Source: a virus. Taken from it: DNA of 64,000 bases. The DNA is taken from positions 64,001 through 128,000 of IMG/VR virus record IMGVR_UViG_3300019124_000038, one strand, 5' to 3'. Both the position numbers and the translations under genes were made by a program. The notes under the pieces were generated by a model that was given only the letters and a program-made list of their open reading frames with translations, ran no database searches and was not told the origin of the DNA. The first letter of the stretch is position 1. Each line of letters opens with the position of its first letter. Shown piece after piece: positions 20,247 to 47,160 of this stretch.

Positions 20247-20945
20247 GTGGCATTCATCTATATGAGCAACGGGGAGCCAGTAGAGATTGATGATGAGGAT
20301 TTCGCTTGGCTTAGTCAGTACAAATGGAGACCAGACAAAGATGGATATGCGCGAACGACTTGGAGGCAAGATGGGACACGGTATGACAGACGAATGCACC
20401 GCATGATTTTAGATGCTTCTAGGGGTCAAATTGTAGATCATATCGACGGGAATCGCCTTAATAATCGCAAAAACAATCTTCGTTTTGTGAGTAGCCGACA
20501 AAACTCACAAAACATGAAGAGACCGCGCACAAACACTACAGGCTATAAGGGTGTAGTGAAGCGCAGAGAAAATAGGTATGAAGCGAAAGTCACTCACGGC
20601 GGAGATTGTTTGTACTGCGGAACATACACGAATGCTCTTGCCGCCGCACATGCCTATAATTACAACGCTAAGTTATGCTTCGGTCAGTTCGCACAGCTCA
20701 ACGAGGTCGAACCTTTGGATGATTGGAGAGACTTTCGGGTTGCGACTGTTCCGAAATCACAATGGCGTGGAGTGAGTGAAAAAGGCGATAAGTGGCAAGC
20801 ATCTATTTTTCATGAAGGTCAAAGAGTCTATATTGGTCTATATGAGACAGAGATTCAGGCGGCTTTAGCCTATAACGCTAAGGCATCTGAGTTAAAAGGA
20901 GAAAGTGCTGTATTGAACGAAGTGGAGGATGATCTAGTATGCTAG
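20247..20945 (+). CDS. HNH homing endonuclease with two AP2 domains
   Basis: MHR.I...VDHIDGNRLNNRKNNLR; two (Y/W)xGV...AA.AYN..A AP2 repeats. Confidence 0.9.
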   Translation: MAFIYMSNGEPVEIDDEDFAWLSQYKWRPDKDGYARTTWRQDGTRYDRRMHRMILDASRGQIVDHIDGNRLNNRKNNLRFVSSRQNSQNMKRPRTNTTGYKGVVKRRENRYEAKVTHGGDCLYCGTYTNALAAAHAYNYNAKLCFGQFAQLNEVEPLDDWRDFRVATVPKSQWRGVSEKGDKWQASIFHEGQRVYIGLYETEIQAALAYNAKASELKGESAVLNEVEDDLVC

Positions 20946-21805
20946 GAATTGCATTCGCAGGAGGTGGAATCAGAGGAAGTGTCGAACTCGGCATCGTAAA
21001 GGCTTTCTACGAAGCGAACATTCGCCCAACAATCTTTACTGGTGCATCCGCTGGTTCAATTGTGGCAGGGCTACTAGCGATGGGCTACAGTCCTGACGAA
21101 GCATTCGCTGAGTTTTCAAAAGTTGGTAGTGATGTAATGGATGTAGCGTATGGTCATATCCTGTCTGGTCTCTTCTCGAAAGAACGAGTGCAAGGACTAG
21201 TTAGGGGTGACAGATTAGAGTCTATGTTGAACATGCTCTATTGCCGACGACAAATGCATGGGATTCCACAACCTAATAAGTTGGCAGTTGTTGCGACAGA
21301 CATCCAGACAGGCAAACAGATCATTTTTGCGAATCAAGACCCAGTAGACACAAGCATGATTGGTGATGATAATTTCGCATGGTTTAATCAGAGCACTTTG
21401 CCAATCAGTTTTGCTGTTCGCAGTTCATGCTCTTTCCCCGCCGTCTTCTTACCGAAGAGGTACATGGATTATGTATTAGTGGACGGGGGACTCACCAACA
21501 ATGTCCCATCGGATATTGCGCGGGCACTGGGAGCAACACAGGTCATTACTATTGATCTTGGCTACAACGGGGAGAAAGAGGAAGTAGGTGGTATCGCTTC
21601 AATCATCGGGAAAAGCATTTCAATTCTCATGGAGCGCGTAAACGATCATAATAACGATACACATGGAATCTATCTGAATCCTAGCGTGGATGATGTTGGA
21701 ACATTTGATTTCTCGCAAATGGACGAACTCTACCAGATCGGCTATAGATACGGGAAAGCAATGATCCAAGAAGTTCGTGAGAAGCTAGTCCTTGCCACAG
21801 CCTAG
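20939..21805 (+). CDS. patatin-like phospholipase
   Basis: GGGIRG, GASAG nucleophile elbow, DGG. Confidence 0.92.
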   Translation: MLGIAFAGGGIRGSVELGIVKAFYEANIRPTIFTGASAGSIVAGLLAMGYSPDEAFAEFSKVGSDVMDVAYGHILSGLFSKERVQGLVRGDRLESMLNMLYCRRQMHGIPQPNKLAVVATDIQTGKQIIFANQDPVDTSMIGDDNFAWFNQSTLPISFAVRSSCSFPAVFLPKRYMDYVLVDGGLTNNVPSDIARALGATQVITIDLGYNGEKEEVGGIASIIGKSISILMERVNDHNNDTHGIYLNPSVDDVGTFDFSQMDELYQIGYRYGKAMIQEVREKLVLATA

Positions 21806-21851: not shown

Positions 21852-22187
21852 ATGGTAACAATCGCAAATGGCGTTGTTTTCAATGACACCCATGTCGTAA
21901 CAACAACTGAGCTTTTACGGCTCTCCTTCTATGGGACAGGCAATGAGAATGTCATCATTGCCTTTGCTCCTAGTGTTGAGCGTCGTGGCTTGAAAGTTCT
22001 AAATGATTTCAAGCAAAACGGTACAGCAAAGATTCAAGTGTACAACAACGGTGTGCTTATCTTTGAAGATAGTGCCTATACAGATGTACAGTTCGAATAT
22101 GCCAAGAACGACACGCAAAATCTGGTAGAGCAACTGAACTTCACCAAGTCTGTTTCTTCGCTATCGACATCTACGGTCAGCGGGTAG
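21852..22187 (+). CDS. hypothetical beta-rich protein, first gene of rSAM operon
   Basis: GAGGAGG RBS, 111 aa; no family recognised. Confidence 0.75.
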   Translation: MVTIANGVVFNDTHVVTTTELLRLSFYGTGNENVIIAFAPSVERRGLKVLNDFKQNGTAKIQVYNNGVLIFEDSAYTDVQFEYAKNDTQNLVEQLNFTKSVSSLSTSTVSG

Positions 22188-22196
22188 GTGTTATAG

Positions 22197-22853
22197 ATGC
22201 CAGCACAGAAAGGTACAGTTTGGATTACCGATTCTGAGTTTCATCTGGTAGGTGAGGACGGACTGCATTGGTACTATGTCGGCACTGATGCGGGTGCGGC
22301 TCCAGCGGATGCAGACCTTGGCTCTATTTGGGTTAACACCAATCTGTATTACATCGACGCTAACGCTAGGATTCGGTATATCCCAAGCGTAGTCATGAGC
22401 GCTGTGCAGGGTGTTGCTGGTAGTGCATGGATTAATAACCGTTTCCTCTACTGGCTAGATAACACAAAGACCATCCGATACGGTCATTCAGATGTCGCAG
22501 GATACAACGACTACGGCGATTCACGCGCTCACGGAGACACGGCATTCTATGACAGGGCACATACCGATTCCTATGGCACATATACAAACTGGGCGCATAG
22601 CGACACTCCTCACTCTGACAACGCACACGGTGACTGGCAACCATACTGCGACGTAACTGGTTGCTCGCCTACGCACGGTGATTATGGACATGGCGATAGT
22701 CCACATAGTGATAATCCGCATGTAGATTCACCAGCGCAATATTTCGATATTCCACACGGGGATACGCCACATAGCGACACCCCACCATACTCGGATTACG
22801 GCGATTCTCGGGCACATGCAGACTACCCACGACAGGGAACGACAATTGCATAG
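22197..22853 (+). CDS. fibre-like protein with HxD/YxD repeat region; putative radical SAM substrate
   Basis: Three N-terminal G(S/T)xW repeats; 21 aromatic-x-D/N motifs in aa 97-209; directly upstream of an rSAM/SPASM gene. Confidence 0.8.
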   Translation: MPAQKGTVWITDSEFHLVGEDGLHWYYVGTDAGAAPADADLGSIWVNTNLYYIDANARIRYIPSVVMSAVQGVAGSAWINNRFLYWLDNTKTIRYGHSDVAGYNDYGDSRAHGDTAFYDRAHTDSYGTYTNWAHSDTPHSDNAHGDWQPYCDVTGCSPTHGDYGHGDSPHSDNPHVDSPAQYFDIPHGDTPHSDTPPYSDYGDSRAHADYPRQGTTIA

Positions 22854-22864
22854 GAGGGGAAAGG

Positions 22865-24079
22865 ATGGCTAACGAAGTTAGACCTATGGGTGTAGCATGT
22901 AATCTTAAATGCACTTACTGCTATCAGAACCCTCTTCGGGATGCGGGGAATATCAATACTCTGTATGATCTCGAAAAGATCATCGAGCAACTTGACAAGA
23001 CCACATCAGAGTTTCACCTTTTCGGGGGTGAAGCTCTACTAATCCCGAAGAAAGATTTAGAGGTTCTTTGGTCATACGGATTAAAACGGTTCGGACAAAA
23101 CGGGATTCAAACGAACGGCGTACTTATCGACGCTGAACACGTAGAACTGTTCAAAAAATATAAAGTTTCTGTCGGCATCTCTATCGACGGCCCTGCCGAA
23201 CTCAACGACATGCGTTGGGCGGGTTCTCTCGACAAGACACGGGAAGCAACGCAAAAGATCATGGACAACATCGTTATGCTGGCTAATGAGGGTGTGCAGA
23301 TGGGCATTATCATCACCATCCACAAACTTAATGGTATGCCAGAACATCTTCCACGACTGCTCAATTTTATTCGTTGGCTCGGAGATATCGGCGTTAAAGG
23401 CGGCAACATTCACACCCTTGAAGTCGATAATGAGATTGTAAGGAACATGTTCTGTCTGACAGAAGAAGAAAATCTTTATGCGTTCCTGACTCTGGCGCAG
23501 TTCTTTCAGGAGAACCCTGATCTGTCATGGAATCCGTTCGGAGAAATATACAAGCTCCTCCAAGGTGATGACTACGGGGCTAACTGTAATTTTAAACGAT
23601 GTGATTCTATGAACACTCAGGCGGTCTATGGCATTGAAGGGAATGGCGCACTGTCTAACTGCTCTCGCACTAACAAAGAAGGTATCGACATGTATAAGGC
23701 AGACGATCATGGCTATGAGCGCTACATTTCGCTCTACCACACGCCGCCTGAGTATGGTGGCTGTAACGGTTGCCGTTTCTGGTCGATCTGCGGTGGATCA
23801 TGTCCCGGTGAAAGTGTTAATGGAGACTTTAGAAACAAAACAATACACTGTCAAACAATGAAGGGTATTCTCGGTTTCTACGAAGAAGTTCTGGAGAGCG
23901 AGGGTATTCAACCTATCACTAAGCATCCGAATCTCTACGAATACGAGAGAGAGATGTTGAAGTGGATGGCGCAAGGTCAGAACTGCTTGCTCAGTGATGC
24001 TATCAGGATGGTTGATGGTCGCGGGGAAAATGGCGAAATTCGCGTAGTTCCTGTGTACAGAAATGAAGGGAGGGAGTAA
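22865..24079 (+). CDS. radical SAM/SPASM domain peptide/protein maturase
   Basis: CNLKCTYC, FGGEALL, IQTNG, ISIDGP; SPASM CNFKRC...SNC...CNGCRFWSICGGSCP...HC. Confidence 0.93.
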   Translation: MANEVRPMGVACNLKCTYCYQNPLRDAGNINTLYDLEKIIEQLDKTTSEFHLFGGEALLIPKKDLEVLWSYGLKRFGQNGIQTNGVLIDAEHVELFKKYKVSVGISIDGPAELNDMRWAGSLDKTREATQKIMDNIVMLANEGVQMGIIITIHKLNGMPEHLPRLLNFIRWLGDIGVKGGNIHTLEVDNEIVRNMFCLTEEENLYAFLTLAQFFQENPDLSWNPFGEIYKLLQGDDYGANCNFKRCDSMNTQAVYGIEGNGALSNCSRTNKEGIDMYKADDHGYERYISLYHTPPEYGGCNGCRFWSICGGSCPGESVNGDFRNKTIHCQTMKGILGFYEEVLESEGIQPITKHPNLYEYEREMLKWMAQGQNCLLSDAIRMVDGRGENGEIRVVPVYRNEGRE

Positions 24080-25041
24080 TGATGGAACTGCTTGGCTTTG
24101 ACATGCCGCCGTTTGCGCGTATTCAATATGTTACAGCAGGTGTCAAGAACGAGTGGGAGCCGCGTGTTGCAAGAGCCGCAAAAGCCTACTACGATCTGGA
24201 GCTTCTAACTGTCAAGCATGGAGTACGCGCATGTACTACACGTCATGTCTCTCCACAGAACTTGGAGTATGACTTACAGAACTTTGCGCGGCATGGTCTT
24301 GTGTGGCTTCCGATTCAACGAGTGGGAAGCTATCAGGGCTTTGCTCACAAGCATCCTCCTGTTCAGGAAGGTCGCCCTTGGGCTTGGTATGGTGTAGTGG
24401 CTCGTACAATGGAAGACGCTTTGAAGTTTGTCGAAGCATCGACGACAAAGTTCGACCACGATGTTCTTGGTCAGCTTCTTGGCTATCCCGACTGTTGTCG
24501 AAAGTTTTTTAATGAGGTGTGGGGGGCAGGGTATATTGACCCAATATGGCAACAAGCAGGAGGTGATCTTGAACACATGATACAGCATGAGGTCACGGAA
24601 GGTCAGGAAATGGTGCACTTCTCCAGTAGCGTCTCACATTTGACCGTATCCATGCTTCGTTATATTGGTGTGCGTATCGTACCGCATATCCCGTGCTCTG
24701 TAGGTTGCAAACATTCAGAGCATATTGCTCAGGCATGGTTTGAAGTCGGAGAGAAAGAGGAGGTAGAAGGTCTCCGTGATCTTGTAGCCCTCTTGACTCT
24801 GCCTACTGAATGGGACTGCCTGAGAGGGATTGCCGTTGTCTCTACACCTTTGTTCAAGATTCAGACGAACTCTATGACCACAACGAAGCGGTACATTGTT
24901 CGTAAGGATGGCGAATGGTATCCAGAAGAAGCACCAAGCGGCTTGAAGTTTCCTTGGCAAACGAAAGTAGGATTCGGATGTAATACCAGTATTCGCTCAC
25001 ACGCCAAGTCTGATCTGATTCAAGTAGAGAGTACACAATGA
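24079..25041 (+). CDS. Cys/His-motif protein coupled to the rSAM gene (possibly DUF483-like)
   Basis: Start overlaps the rSAM stop; motifs GQLLGYPDCCRKFF and HIPCSVGC. Confidence 0.7.
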   Translation: MMELLGFDMPPFARIQYVTAGVKNEWEPRVARAAKAYYDLELLTVKHGVRACTTRHVSPQNLEYDLQNFARHGLVWLPIQRVGSYQGFAHKHPPVQEGRPWAWYGVVARTMEDALKFVEASTTKFDHDVLGQLLGYPDCCRKFFNEVWGAGYIDPIWQQAGGDLEHMIQHEVTEGQEMVHFSSSVSHLTVSMLRYIGVRIVPHIPCSVGCKHSEHIAQAWFEVGEKEEVEGLRDLVALLTLPTEWDCLRGIAVVSTPLFKIQTNSMTTTKRYIVRKDGEWYPEEAPSGLKFPWQTKVGFGCNTSIRSHAKSDLIQVESTQ

Positions 25042-25429
25042 AACTTCTCCGCATATTGTTAGTGCCAATCACGTACCCGATTTTCGTGGTTCTCGTTATT
25101 CTCGCGAATTTACTTATAGTAGTAACATTTGGAGATGTTCGTTGGGCATGGATATTCGCAGGATGGGTACAGGATTACTACTATTGGATAAGTGAATGGA
25201 GGTATATGTAGTGGCTAAGGACACCAATATTGACACTCAAAAGTTTGACTGTTGCTACGAACTGAGCCACAAGGGGATTTACATGGAGGTTGACCTGAAT
25301 AGTACCCATGTGGCCTTCTCAATGTATAATCGTGCGCGGTTTGAAACACAAGTTTGTATCAATAGCAAGGACGACGCACGTAGGCTCATTGAGTTGTTAG
25401 AGGAATATTGTCAGCGATCCTAGCATTCC

Positions 25430-42636: not shown

Positions 42637-42987
42637 ATGGTTAGAGTGCAAGATTATATCATTCCGCGCAACATCAATGTGAAAGAAGGTCTGATCGCAA
42701 ATCTTAACGCAAAACAAGTCCTGTTTCTCATCATCGGCGGTGCGACTTCCGTAGGAATCTGGAAGCTAGGTTCTACTTGGGATGTTGCAGTTCGAGTATC
42801 GGCAAGCATCTTCGCAGTAGGCGGCGCACTGTTTTTCACTATCTACAAGGTAGAAGGACAGACATTAGATCAATATACGTGGAATATGATGAAGTATCCA
42901 TTCCGTACTAAGAACTATGATGGAGGTGTAGAAGAATATGTTCACCAGCAAACGCCAAAAGTATGCATTAGATATGCCCTGCAATGA
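42637..42987 (+). CDS. PrgI/VirB3-like protein
   Basis: IPRNI..KE.LI..L..KQ, two TMs, KVEGQTLD. Confidence 0.8.
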   Translation: MVRVQDYIIPRNINVKEGLIANLNAKQVLFLIIGGATSVGIWKLGSTWDVAVRVSASIFAVGGALFFTIYKVEGQTLDQYTWNMMKYPFRTKNYDGGVEEYVHQQTPKVCIRYALQ

Positions 42988-44734
42988 TCTTGCTCAATAC
43001 AAAAAACATTGGTACATGGTACTGCGTGTAGGGTCGGTAGACCTTGACATGTGCGACAAAGACGACCAAGAAGCTATCCTCATGACGTTTCAGCAGATCA
43101 TTAATTCGTTCCACGCGCCGATTCAACACATTCAGAAGCGTGTACCTCTCGACTTCTCTGAGCACATCCTTCGCGTTGACAAAATGATCGGCTGTATCGA
43201 CAATGAAAACGTTAAGAAGTACGGGGAGTCCTATGTCACATATCTGGATGAGGCCGCCCAAGGCAAACTCACTACCGTCAACTATTTGATCTTAAAAACA
43301 GATCGTTATTGCTCCTATGAGGCCGCCCAGTCTACGCTCGGTTCTTTGCGCGATCAGATCATGCGGGCTGTAGAACCGCTGAGCATTGACGTACATCAAC
43401 TGACTGGCAGAGAGTTAGATGACTTCTATGCTTTCCCGTTCAAGGTGCAAGAACGCAAGGACTACGTGATCTATGGCAATGAATACCGTCGCACGTATAT
43501 TGTGACCGACTATCCGAGAGTTGCCTATCCAAACTGGATGAAGCCACTCACTGAGTTTCCGTTCCCTGTAGAAATTAGCCAGCACATCCATCCGTACTCT
43601 CGGGACATGATAATCCGCAGTCTCGAAGTCTCTATCGCAAAGTTGCAGTCCTCAAAGGAGATGGTGATGAGAAGCGGCATCAGCGCGGGGAGCGAGATTC
43701 AAGCGAAGATCGACGACGCGAAAGACCTCCTTAAACGCATCTCCAGTGGTCAAGACAGTATCTTCCAGTATGGAATGTGCGTGACGGTAGTATCTGATAG
43801 CTTGGATGAGTTGGAACGTAATAGCTATGCTATCGAAGGTGCTCTCCGTAGCATACAGGTCAGCTTTCGACGAGCGATCTACCAGATGAACAAGGCTCTG
43901 ACTTCAACCCTGCCGCTCTGCTGGAACCAGCTTAATGAATGGTATACCCTCGACTCTCGCGCTCTGTCTACCATGCTTCTGTGGACAAATGCTAACTATT
44001 CCAGCACAGGCGGCATTCTTTATGGAATCAACGAACAAACGAATGCTCTCATCACATTCGACCGCTTCGAGATGCCGAACCCAAACGCCGTTATTATTGG
44101 TAGCTCTGGATATGGCAAAAGCATGACTGCCAAGACAGTAGAGATCAGCCGCAATCTTGTTACTGGCAGTCAGGTCATTGTCCTCGACTGGAGCGGCGAG
44201 TATCGTCAACTATGCGATCTTATGGGCGGACAATACGTGGAAAGAGATCAGGAACCAGACTGGAGCCGCCACCTCATCATCTTCTACGGCGATAATGTCA
44301 ACCAGCTTCGCAAGGTTTGGCAGTTCATTCAAGCCGCACCGATGAAATGCCGCTCTTTGATCGTTGAAGAGTTTCACAACATCCTGCGTGAAGACCCGAA
44401 TCTTATCCTCACCATCATGCAAGAAATTCGTAAACGATTCTGCGCCCCGACGCTCATCACTCAGAACGTGCAGGAGTTCATGAGATCGCCAGAAGGCAAG
44501 ATGATTCTCGATCTCTGCTCTATCAAGCTCCTGCTTCATCTCGGAGACAATGATGTAAAGGAAGCGGCAGAACTCTTCCATCTGACCAAGCAAGAGAAAA
44601 TGTACCTCCGTACCTGCGGCAAAGGACGTGGCTACATTTACGCCCCGAACTTCAAGACAAAGATCAAGATTGACTACTCTGATCGCGAAGAACGGCTGTT
44701 GACTACTGATCCGAGGGAGGTTGTGCTACAGTGA
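42938..44734 (+). CDS. virB4: VirB4-like T4SS ATPase
   Basis: YGIN, NPNAVIIGSSGYGKS Walker A, LDWSGEY, LIVEEFH Walker B, ITQN. Confidence 0.88.
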   Translation: MFTSKRQKYALDMPCNDLAQYKKHWYMVLRVGSVDLDMCDKDDQEAILMTFQQIINSFHAPIQHIQKRVPLDFSEHILRVDKMIGCIDNENVKKYGESYVTYLDEAAQGKLTTVNYLILKTDRYCSYEAAQSTLGSLRDQIMRAVEPLSIDVHQLTGRELDDFYAFPFKVQERKDYVIYGNEYRRTYIVTDYPRVAYPNWMKPLTEFPFPVEISQHIHPYSRDMIIRSLEVSIAKLQSSKEMVMRSGISAGSEIQAKIDDAKDLLKRISSGQDSIFQYGMCVTVVSDSLDELERNSYAIEGALRSIQVSFRRAIYQMNKALTSTLPLCWNQLNEWYTLDSRALSTMLLWTNANYSSTGGILYGINEQTNALITFDRFEMPNPNAVIIGSSGYGKSMTAKTVEISRNLVTGSQVIVLDWSGEYRQLCDLMGGQYVERDQEPDWSRHLIIFYGDNVNQLRKVWQFIQAAPMKCRSLIVEEFHNILREDPNLILTIMQEIRKRFCAPTLITQNVQEFMRSPEGKMILDLCSIKLLLHLGDNDVKEAAELFHLTKQEKMYLRTCGKGRGYIYAPNFKTKIKIDYSDREERLLTTDPREVVLQ

Positions 44735-47160
44735 AAGATTATACTGTACTGGAGGTCAACAACGTACCTGACGAGACCGATCTGGAGAATGCAGAACGGA
44801 TGTTGCGCTCCTTCTTTCGTACTATTGAACCCGAAGGGAAGCGGGAGAAATGGGACGATAGGGATAAAATCTCTTGGGAACTTTACGCAGAGAAGGATAA
44901 GATCGGGTTCTACGCAGTAGTTCCCCGTAGAATAGAACGTCTCATTCGTAGTCGAATCTTCGACGCTTATCCCAGTGCAGAAATCAAGTCCACTGAGTTC
45001 GACCCTGCCAAGCAGTTCACAGACAAAGCGTTCGTGGCACAGATGAGTCTGCACAAGCACTTTATGTTTGCCACTAAATCGAGCAAGGCTGGTGATGCGC
45101 CTATCAGCTCCATTCTGAACTCTATGAGTGGGCTGGAGGAAGATCAGCGGATGCTTCTGCAAATCTCTATGGTTCCGATCAATAACAAGTGGCAGGGCAA
45201 GGCGTACAAAGCATATCGTAAGATGCTATTTCAAGGCGTGAAGCCGAAGAGGGGCACAAACAATACATGGGTGCGCGGCACAGTGATTGGCGCGAAGGCT
45301 CTTATGGTTCTACTTGGTGGAGTACTCTACATGATGACTTTGGGCAATGTCAATGTGTTCGATAAGTCTCTGGAGAGTCAAAAGAACACGCCTATTGAAC
45401 GTGCAGAATTGAAGGGCACTCAGCAGAAGATCGCGCTACCCGCATTCAATGTAGCAATTCGGATAGCGGCAGAAGCAAAAGACAAGAATGTAGCATCGAC
45501 TCGATTAACCGAGCTGGCAAACTCCTTCATTGAAATGGATGCCGATAACGAATGGCGAAGAACACGGGTCAACATTCGTTCATGTTACAATCAAATGTTA
45601 GATCGTAGTGTGCCTAAGCATACGAATGATATCGTAACAACAAGTGAGCTTTCCCCGTTAGTTCGGTTGGTGAACAAACATATCGTTATTCCTGAACTGA
45701 AACACTCACTCAAAACGTATCCGTTGCCTCAAGGTCTGGAAGATGGAACGTTCTTCGCCAAACATGTTCACAATGGCGAAGAGAAGGAGTTCTACTATCC
45801 GACAGATCATGTCAGTGACTTTGTGCATCCGCTCATCATCACTGGTGCGATGGGCGCAGGAAAAACAACTCTTATCAATAACCTGATGATCTCCCGCGCT
45901 GTAGCTGGCTATGGTGTCATCATCATCGACACGCAAGGCGACCAATCTCGCGACTTTATTAAGATGCTTCCGCAGTCTGAGATGCATCGTTTAGTATGGC
46001 TCAACTTCGGAGATGTGCTGAACCCTCCGCCCATCGACTTGATGGAGTTCAATGAAGTAGCGGCAACTGCCAATCCCGTGTTCGCCAAATTCTACAAGCA
46101 GAACGCCAAGAACGAGATGATCGCTCTGTTCAAGAAGCTGTGGGGACAGAACTTTGGCCCTCAAACCGAGTATATTACTCGGCACAACATTACGGCTCAA
46201 ATGGAGACAGGTGGAACCTTCCTAGAGATGTTCCGCATGTTGACCGACAAGGAGTTCCGCGAGAGCATCATCCCTGATCTTCGCTCTAAAGCTCCGCTAT
46301 CATGGAAGTTCTGGAAAACAATTGAGGAGAACTACGAGGAAAAGCAACTGTTGAAGATGTTCATGCCGTCGATCAACAAGCTCGGCGCACTCATTGAAGA
46401 CCCGATGCTTATGAACATCACGTCGCAGGGTCGTCAGACTTATAACTTCCGTCAGATGATGGATGAAGCCAAGATCGTTGTCATCACTATCCCAAAAGGC
46501 ATTCTGGTAGAGAACTGGAACCTGATCGCCAGACTCATGCTGTCGAAAATCTGGCTTGCCGCCTTGTCTCGGGAAGAGATTCACAACATTAATGATCGAC
46601 TACCTTGCTTTCTTGCGGCTGACGAAGCAGACGATCTTATCAATGAGAACTTCCCGACTATGCTGTCTCAGTCCCGTAAGTTCCGTCTCGGCATTGTCAT
46701 GGGCTTCCAGTACCTCAAGCAGATCAAGCAGAATCATCCAAAGACCTACAGTGCAATGATGGGCAACATGCCACATATCGTTGCCATGAAGATCGGTACG
46801 GAAGATCAAGAGGAGTACGGACGTATCTTCGCTCCGCATTACGCGAAGCAGGAACTCATCATGCCGTCACTCCACGGCATTGCGCGTCTCAGTGTTCGCG
46901 GCAATACGCCACATCCGTTTACCATCAAGACTGAGTTTGACCACTACGAGCGGCGGGAAGACAACATAGAAGAAGCGGCGGCGTATAGCAGAGAACACTA
47001 CACACGCACCTACGAAGAAGTCGATGCTATCGTACAGTCGAAAATTGTATCCTTGCTTGATACGTTCCAGCTCATGCAAGAAGTGGCAGATGAATACGAG
47101 CAGGAAGAAGCCGATATGTCTCTGCTCGATCAGCTTCGTGACGAAGAGGATGTGGCATAA
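44731..47160 (+). CDS. VirD4-like type IV coupling protein
   Basis: TGAMGAGKT, IIDTQGD, ADEAD, SQSRKFRLGIVMGFQY. Confidence 0.85.
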   Translation: MKDYTVLEVNNVPDETDLENAERMLRSFFRTIEPEGKREKWDDRDKISWELYAEKDKIGFYAVVPRRIERLIRSRIFDAYPSAEIKSTEFDPAKQFTDKAFVAQMSLHKHFMFATKSSKAGDAPISSILNSMSGLEEDQRMLLQISMVPINNKWQGKAYKAYRKMLFQGVKPKRGTNNTWVRGTVIGAKALMVLLGGVLYMMTLGNVNVFDKSLESQKNTPIERAELKGTQQKIALPAFNVAIRIAAEAKDKNVASTRLTELANSFIEMDADNEWRRTRVNIRSCYNQMLDRSVPKHTNDIVTTSELSPLVRLVNKHIVIPELKHSLKTYPLPQGLEDGTFFAKHVHNGEEKEFYYPTDHVSDFVHPLIITGAMGAGKTTLINNLMISRAVAGYGVIIIDTQGDQSRDFIKMLPQSEMHRLVWLNFGDVLNPPPIDLMEFNEVAATANPVFAKFYKQNAKNEMIALFKKLWGQNFGPQTEYITRHNITAQMETGGTFLEMFRMLTDKEFRESIIPDLRSKAPLSWKFWKTIEENYEEKQLLKMFMPSINKLGALIEDPMLMNITSQGRQTYNFRQMMDEAKIVVITIPKGILVENWNLIARLMLSKIWLAALSREEIHNINDRLPCFLAADEADDLINENFPTMLSQSRKFRLGIVMGFQYLKQIKQNHPKTYSAMMGNMPHIVAMKIGTEDQEEYGRIFAPHYAKQELIMPSLHGIARLSVRGNTPHPFTIKTEFDHYERREDNIEEAAAYSREHYTRTYEEVDAIVQSKIVSLLDTFQLMQEVADEYEQEEADMSLLDQLRDEEDVA

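Follow-up and report, generated by a model that had tools for sequence, protein, structure and literature searches.

The C-terminal half of a viral protein of 218 amino acids (aa) carries an array of triplets, each formed by an aromatic residue, any residue, and Asp, the spacing of which is the same when read from either end. The protein is encoded in a record of 146.5 kb (IMG/VR virus record IMGVR_UViG_3300019124_000038), of which we have analysed positions 64,001 to 128,000, a stretch of 64,000 nucleotides called here the window, to which all coordinates refer. Its gene, present as a single copy in the whole record, stands next to genes for a radical S-adenosylmethionine (SAM) enzyme and a protein resembling DUF483, with which it forms a cassette. 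What is new is that the His-x-Asp arrays of this cassette are, as read from the sequences, mirror-spaced in many relatives; these repeat proteins are a large phage family without name or family model, not described before. We consider it likely that the array folds back on itself as one long antiparallel hairpin and, with somewhat less assurance, take the whole picture of a phage family of such hairpins, modified by a radical-SAM enzyme, as its best and rather probable explanation. A literature search found no paper describing such a mirror-spaced hairpin design. The parts of the protein are the following:

22197-22853, + strand: open reading frame (ORF) of the 218-aa repeat protein; the array under study comprises aa 97-209
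22197-22484, + strand: all-beta N-terminal domain, aa 1-96, conserved across the family and modelled by AlphaFold2 (AF2) with 11 strands, at a predicted local distance difference test (pLDDT) score of 89-98
22485-22634, + strand: ascending arm, aa 97-146, with ten aromatic-x-Asp/Asn triplets
22635-22673, + strand: turn or tip, aa 147-159, WQPYCDVTGCSPT, with the unpaired Y150-C-D plus Cys151 and Cys156
22674-22823, + strand: descending arm, aa 160-209, with ten triplets at mirror positions
22824-22853, + strand: C-terminal tail, aa 210-218 (Y-P-R-Q-G-T-T-I-A), and stop codon

Mirror Spacing of the Triplet Array

Counted strictly, aromatic-x-Asp triplets start at residues 97, 103, 106, 112, 117, 122, 134, 139, 144, 150, 160, 165, 170, 175, 182, 187, 192, 198, 201, and 207 (20 in total), and all 20 Asp residues between positions 97 and 209 have an aromatic residue two positions before them. 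The triplet at residue 129 reads Y-T-N, with Asn instead of Asp, and the central triplet, Y150-C-D, has no mirror partner. When Y129 is counted and Y150 left out, the starts form ten pairs that all sum to 304, as a preliminary description of this DNA had claimed; its motif list stands for the remaining triplets, having entered Y129 among the HxD/YxD motifs and passed over Y150-C-D. In the antiparallel reading the residue sum becomes 306, with every H-x-D opposite D-x-H and linkers of equal length. The symmetry is real by either count: 20 of 23 starts are mirrored, a number reached in 0 of 2000 arrays with shuffled gaps (null mean 10.8), and with strict aromatic-x-Asp only, 18 of 20 are mirrored, with 0 of 5000 shuffles as good.

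The outermost block of each arm calls for caution, as its 6,3,6 spacing is palindromic by itself and its residues are repeated directly, as Y-x-D-Y-G-D-S-R-A-H-x-D, once at 103-114 and again at 198-209. In the 218-aa protein alone, therefore, it is mainly the position of the gap of 7 that separates mirror from direct order, an ambiguity that is removed by the spacing of the homologs. Tandem duplication was considered as the cause of the symmetry and rejected, in agreement with the preliminary description: Direct-order z scores are near zero across the family proteins, mirror order lying far above them, and the two copies of the outer repeat differ at most synonymous sites. We know of no DNA-level process, inverted repeats included, that is able to mirror a protein, and the symmetry must therefore be selected at the level of structure.

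Mirror Spacing among Homologs

A profile search retrieved at least 964 representative clusters at E<=1e-3, 356 of them at <=1e-10. Many of these homologs share the layout of N-terminal domain plus repeats; others are 500-1250 aa long, with the repeat region at the C-terminus, and the family alignment is highly variable, too variable for a pattern scan. The closest relative, P0002, is 60% identical and encoded on a syntenic contig of 178 kb. Its innermost linkers have grown from 2 to 4 residues in both arms (NA to SSTS on one side, YG to YPAS on the other), so that the ten pairs are all kept and now sum to 308. Such paired indels, which the preliminary description had named as the test of its proposal, recur between P0006 and P0013, where the fifth gap from the base differs (4 to 5) in both arms.

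Applied to the family with the centre fixed at the first and last motif, an exact-match test of mirror order gave p<=0.01 for 19 of 98 proteins (about 1 expected) and p<=0.05 for 32 of 98 (about 5 expected). A z score of at least 3 is reached by 34 of 143 proteins in mirror order versus 3 of 143 in direct-repeat order, with mean z values of 1.75 and 0.41, respectively. Individual members leave little ambiguity. The gaps of P0065 run 5,6,4,4,4,4,5,7 in one arm and 7,5,4,4,4,4,6,5 in the other; P0137 is another unambiguously mirrored member; and the two arms of P0016, of 149 residues each, agree in 30 gaps counted from the tip down to the base. In gp29 of the Thermus phage phiMa, 38 of 59 motifs are mirrored exactly about the first and last motif (0 of 2000 shuffles), and the remaining mismatches are mostly cases in which 3+3 on one arm faces 6 on the other. 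The mirror trait is thus widespread, yet demonstrated for part of the family only. We note separately that facing triplets in mirrored rungs rarely have Gly in the middle of both (3 observed, 8.9 expected, z -2.4), a shortage which may reflect a packing constraint.

Turn, Termini, and the Proposed Hairpin

Among 26 well-mirrored members, the segment at the centre is free of motifs, 5-27 residues long and of variable sequence, with Pro or Gly present in 24 of them, in line with the variable tip loop anticipated in the preliminary description. The two central Cys residues reported there, Cys151 and Cys156, do lie within the tip. A disulfide-closed tip, on the other hand, was discarded as a feature of the family, for Cys156 is replaced by Trp in P0002 and only 2 of the 26 members have two tip Cys. 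At the other end of the array, alignment A2 shows H97 of the first triplet to be nearly invariant across the family, as is D209, the only residue of the last triplet so kept, and Pro211 behind it is invariant. The AF2 monomer has a small beta bridge between residues 151-152 and 155-156, of low confidence and placed at the predicted mirror centre, and gives the C-terminal tail a pLDDT of 79 with a strand at 212-213, which in the model seems to lie beside the N-terminal domain.

These features are accommodated by a fold-back of about 50 residues per arm, as first suggested in the preliminary description and now supported by the paired indels, the mirror spacing of the family, the short tips with Pro or Gly, and the tail strand and centre bridge of the AF2 model. 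The hairpin would leave the all-beta N-terminal domain at residue 97, ascend to 146, turn over residues 147-159, and descend along 160-209 to re-enter the same domain. Its arms would form a ladder of ten rungs, each with a triplet of the ascending arm opposite one of the descending arm, and the linkers between rungs could be of any length if matched in both arms. In every rung the His, Tyr, or Phe would stand level with the Asp of the partner triplet; the arithmetic of this earlier suggestion, that each aromatic residue faces an Asp of the other arm, is correct. The radical-SAM enzyme would then crosslink the triplets, with bonds inside the single triplet or, as the less likely course, between the two sides of a rung.

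Cassette Partners and Likely Chemistry of the Triplets

Three genes adjoin that of the repeat protein:

21852-22187, + strand: upstream gene of the cassette, 111 aa
22865-24079, + strand: radical SAM/SPASM enzyme of 404 aa; CxxxCxxC spans residues 12-19, and a recognition domain is absent from the N-terminus
24079-25041, + strand: DUF483-like partner, 320 aa, its start overlapping the stop codon of the radical-SAM gene

The 404-aa enzyme matches Radical_SAM of Pfam (1.1e-16), and its translation has the full SPASM set of C-terminal cysteines (G-x4-C ... CxxCx5Cx3C ... C). Residues 10-336 align with the models of PapB, CefB, and QhpD. The best NCBIfam matches are the anaerobic sulfatase maturase anSME, DynA, AmcB, YhhB, and PapB, each of which falls far short of its cut-off, with AlbA among the weaker ones; by its sequence, the enzyme is a branch separate from the curated families of cyclophane synthases.

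The composition of the triplets suits an enzyme of this kind. In the repeat regions of the family, 90% of 4914 Asp residues have an aromatic residue at position -2 (H 80%, Y 6.3%, F 2.8%, W 0.8%), and Asn takes the place of Asp in 8%, nearly throughout in P0137. Triceptide synthases follow the rule aromatic-X-X3: YxdB joins Tyr-C3 to Asp-C-beta, Y-x-D being its proven motif, whereas HaaB, HtkB, and YhhB link His-C2 to C-beta (PMC11002830, PMC11499958). The triplets are thus probably the targets of the neighbouring radical-SAM enzyme, and the crosslinks would most likely be of triceptide type, from aromatic ring to Asp C-beta. We prefer enzymatic crosslinking to pure metal binding because Phe and Trp cannot bind metal, while any aromatic residue together with a C-beta-H2 suits triceptide synthases. 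Rings within each triplet are the simplest reading of the motif, and links across the rung seem less likely, even if they would explain the mirror directly and find a parallel in the topology of nested sactipeptide hairpins (PMC8172795). In its strongest form, this covalent ladder would have every aromatic residue bonded to the Asp C-beta that faces it on the other arm, with two bonds per rung and up to 20 here; we judge it improbable.

The 320-aa protein has a Pfam match to DUF483 (4.9e-4) which falls below the cut-off, and 36 homologs. Its AF2 model is of good quality (pLDDT 91.5) and finds no convincing solved fold, the best matches being 2guk (Z 5.8), of unknown function, and NleE (Z 3.9). 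There is no protease-like fold among the solved-structure matches, which fits a repeat protein that stays whole. As side observations, the conserved residues of this protein include L-L-G-Y-P-x-C-C, D154, R194, and C210 (in a P-H-I-P-C-S-x-x-C motif), and its counterparts in two other phage contigs (L003:7069-8292 and L005:6305-7516) have a class I methyltransferase domain at the C-terminal end.

Genomic Contexts in Other Phages

The set of repeat protein, radical-SAM enzyme, and DUF483-like protein is complete in six other contexts that we examined, and in a seventh, L009, which is a short contig, the repeat protein is followed by the radical-SAM gene alone. The surroundings include large or recognisable virion genes in five of the examined contexts, with Baseplate_J or an SU10 adaptor nearby in two: The repeat-protein gene of phiMa is about 1.5 kb downstream of the Baseplate_J gene, with three genes between, and in another contig the cassette comes after an SU10-type adaptor and a gene of 639 aa. 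In L001, the syntenic contig, the cassette is amid replication genes, as in the window. Fusions to Laminin_G_3 or to virion-protein domains occur in some family members. The placements near virion genes and the fusions would be consistent with a fibre of the virion.

In phiMa, gp29 is a homolog of the 218-aa protein (29.5% identity, E 4e-14), and a radical-SAM gene comes after it; gp27 corresponds in position and length to the DUF483 partner reported for this phage in PMC11437467, and a Pfam scan found no family for it. The only paper that our literature search found to mention this three-gene module describes radical-SAM, DUF483, and a third protein in the Thermus phages phiMa and Cumys, for which it guessed a role in DNA modification (PMC11437467).

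Evidence Weighed and Alternative Explanations

Several observations speak against the explanation we favour. About half of the family members have no mirror that the exact-match test detects, and a rung-index test counted from the base gave a modest signal (30% vs 18-24% when slid), since each additional triplet (3+3 opposite 6) puts the rung count out of step. Co-variation of facing residues (His/non-His, Asp/Asn) is not significant in the family. In the AF2 monomer the arms stay unmodelled, at pLDDT 45-63. The cassette of the window sits amid replication and nucleotide-metabolism genes, not tail genes. As regards the chemistry, the enzyme scores 37-74 bits against cut-offs of 310-450 for XyeB, GrrM/OscB, YhhB, AmcB, and FxsB, and in the HxS system the modification proved to be a shift of +8 Da that is unexplained and does not correspond to a simple crosslink (PMC13128918).

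What else, then, could hold or explain a mirrored array? The hairpin might be a needle zipped by metal, probably trimeric and similar to the tip of T4 gp37, in which His and Asp of opposed triplets hold Fe, Zn, or Ni ions, leaving the radical-SAM enzyme with a different or an accessory task. Such a needle would still be a fold-back, with a difference only in what holds it together. Every rung would offer two His and two Asp at one level, His occupies 80% of the aromatic positions, family members are found at tail-fibre positions, and for gp37 a passage in PMC11705849, which cites the gp37 structure, gives seven iron ions on HxH pairs. Yet half of the non-His positions are taken by Tyr, Phe, and Trp, the last two unable to bind metal, although these residues account for only about 5% of the composition; Asp often gives way to Asn, P0137 being almost entirely HxN; and a radical-SAM enzyme is beside the array in 7 of 7 other contexts. 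Mirror partners at the same height would, moreover, be expected to place twelve ligands at each level of a trimer, unlike in gp37, and the family profile matches no solved chain. We regard such a needle as unlikely. Somewhat less plausible still is that the palindrome arises from two chains, an antiparallel homodimer or a zipper of extended chains. By logic, any antiparallel self-pairing requires the same palindromic spacing; the centre, however, is a short motif-free segment with Pro or Gly in 24 of 26 members, the mirror is centred on the first and last motif, which are directly flanked by the N-terminal domain and the conserved tail, and the AF2 model tends to bring the tail back, as a strand, near that domain.

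Two further explanations were considered, and we give little credence to either. The protein could be an ordinary precursor of peptides made on the ribosome and modified after translation (RiPPs), with the N-terminal domain as leader and repeats that are modified, cut, and set free as small cyclophane peptides. Triceptide precursors with several cores and recurring aromatic-x-X motifs do exist (PMC11002830), and a radical-SAM/SPASM enzyme does adjoin the gene; but the cassette lacks a protease or exporter, nothing in the DUF483-like model resembles a protease fold, mirror spacing would be useless for released tripeptide rings, the supposed leader is confidently folded, and the fusions to virion domains and placement in tail modules speak against such a pathway, which we hold to be very unlikely. 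It is equally hard to believe that the radical-SAM/DUF483 module modifies DNA, with the repeat protein as unrelated cargo that owes its symmetry to another cause, although homologs of the pair lie beside deazapurine DNA-modification genes in cyanobacteria (PMC11437467, section 3.4). In every locus examined, the repeat protein is the constant third partner, the nearest families of the enzyme all act on peptides or proteins, and the triplets obey the aromatic-X-X3 rule.

Comparison with Known Systems

The cassette resembles triceptide systems in having a SPASM-type radical-SAM enzyme beside a protein with many aromatic-X-X3 triplets (W/F/Y/H; X3 = Asp/Asn, with C-beta-H2). It departs from them in its substrate, a folded phage protein of 218 to more than 1000 aa with 20-60 triplets in mirror order rather than a short leader-core peptide, in the lack of a protease or exporter, in the DUF483-like partner, and in an enzyme far below the 3-CyFE models; rings on H-x-D, moreover, are not known. 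In the tip of T4 gp37, the chain runs out and back and has His-x-X triplets on the outgoing and returning strands, an out-and-back phage fibre element such as we predict here. Unlike gp37, the triplets of the repeat protein are H/Y/F-x-D/N and not HxH, a dedicated radical-SAM enzyme is present, the turn has 5-27 residues and no tip head domain, and partners would be at the same height instead of forming one axial file of metal ions. No solved chain in PDB matched the family profile at E<=1, and the comparison is an analogy only.

Type I sactipeptides such as subtilosin A and thurincin H are nested hairpins stapled by radical-SAM/SPASM enzymes (PMC8172795), and share with the repeat protein donor- and acceptor-type partners at mirror positions of a hairpin, here a predicted one, as well as the class of enzyme. 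They differ in that the repeat protein has no Cys donors, its arms measure 50-150 residues versus about 10, and both types of partner are on each arm. Its array region has two Cys only, both in the tip and one not conserved, and does not fit links from Cys sulfur to alpha-carbon; cross-arm links as in sactipeptides may be considered as a possibility only. Another His-x-X repeat within a whole protein is found in the HXS anti-phage system, in which HxsA has five HxS repeats and is accompanied by two radical-SAM enzymes, HxsD, and periplasmic export (PMC13128918). A radical-SAM-dependent covalent change, established in HXS, is predicted here; in contrast, our cassette has one radical-SAM gene, triplets ending in Asp or Asn, and, in the window, no small gene recognised as HxsD-like, and HXS is a bacterial defence effector for which mirror order is not reported. 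In the module of phiMa and Cumys, genes for the repeat protein, radical-SAM enzyme, and DUF483-like protein are equally side by side (PMC11437467); that study left the third protein unexplained, without noting triplets or symmetry.

Should the hairpin be true, it would provide the first structural logic for a large phage family that has its own radical-SAM enzyme, and its triplets would belong together in pairs, as the rungs of a rod, instead of being strung one after another like beads. It would also amount to enzymatic post-translational stapling of a probable virion fibre, for which our literature search found no case, and would supply a simple code, written in the spacing, by which stiff rods of protein could be built to a chosen length. 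If even the covalent cross-arm reading were true, the phage particle would carry a giant nested hairpin in the form of a rod, stapled by C-C bonds and about 16 nm long here (about 50 nm in relatives), which would repeat the topology of sactipeptides on the scale of a protein and by cyclophane chemistry. A test is practical, since two Thermus phages with this design, phiMa and Cumys, are in culture.

N-Terminal Domain and Neighbouring Genes

Neither the 218-aa protein nor its halves belong to a family in Pfam, NCBIfam, or PHROGs; its protein atlas scores are all <0.8, and no close relatives were found by blastn against phages or in two scans of viral_contigs. Foldseek of the AF2 model against PDB gave no match at E<=1e-3, and returned cell-wall-binding repeat proteins at E 0.2-0.7. 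Fold matches of the N-terminal domain are weak, the best being the beta-prism II of LlpA (Z 4.2, VIA wide). A search of BFVD had a single return, a viral protein of 342 aa with 30% identity, equal in length to phiMa gp29. These fold searches touched the N-terminal domain only, and weakly.

The domain contains three copies of G-x-x-W-[IV]-x4-[LF]-[HY]-[LYW]-[VIL]-D. Its repeats (G-S-x-W-V-x4-L-[HY]-Y-I-D-x2-G-x2-R) look like the beta-hairpin repeats that bind cell walls or choline, and its weak Foldseek and atlas matches include dextransucrase DSR-E, CbpJ, LytB, Pce, and the repeats of C. difficile toxin A. A role in carbohydrate binding may be taken as a lead only.

The cassette neighbours in the window are genes for DNA polymerase III alpha, ribonucleotide reductase, patatin, HNH endonuclease, ERF-like proteins, and glycosyltransferases. 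The 111-aa upstream gene has no family in Pfam, NCBIfam, or PHROG; it is 34% identical to a 102-aa gene at the same place in L001, and could not be aligned to the upstream genes of about 95 aa in L005 and phiMa. The latter (L005:3913-4200 and L007:6698-6991, phiMa gp30) are homologous to an N-terminal extension fused in P0004 and P0007, which ends in V-L-P-V-G-[TS]-D-R-W-A. Just upstream of the cassette, at 20247-21805, the gene for an HNH_3 endonuclease (232 aa) runs into the start of that for a patatin-like phospholipase (288 aa); L001 shares the patatin, and not the HNH gene, with the window. A hydrophobic ORF of 57 aa (25038-25211) comes directly after the DUF483-like gene, its place in L001 being taken by a gene of 58 aa with a Pfam match to VbhA. 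Farther away, at 42938-47160, two adjoining large P-loop proteins (598 and 809 aa) have ATPase motifs of TraG/TrwB/HerA type, which is unusual for a phage-like record.
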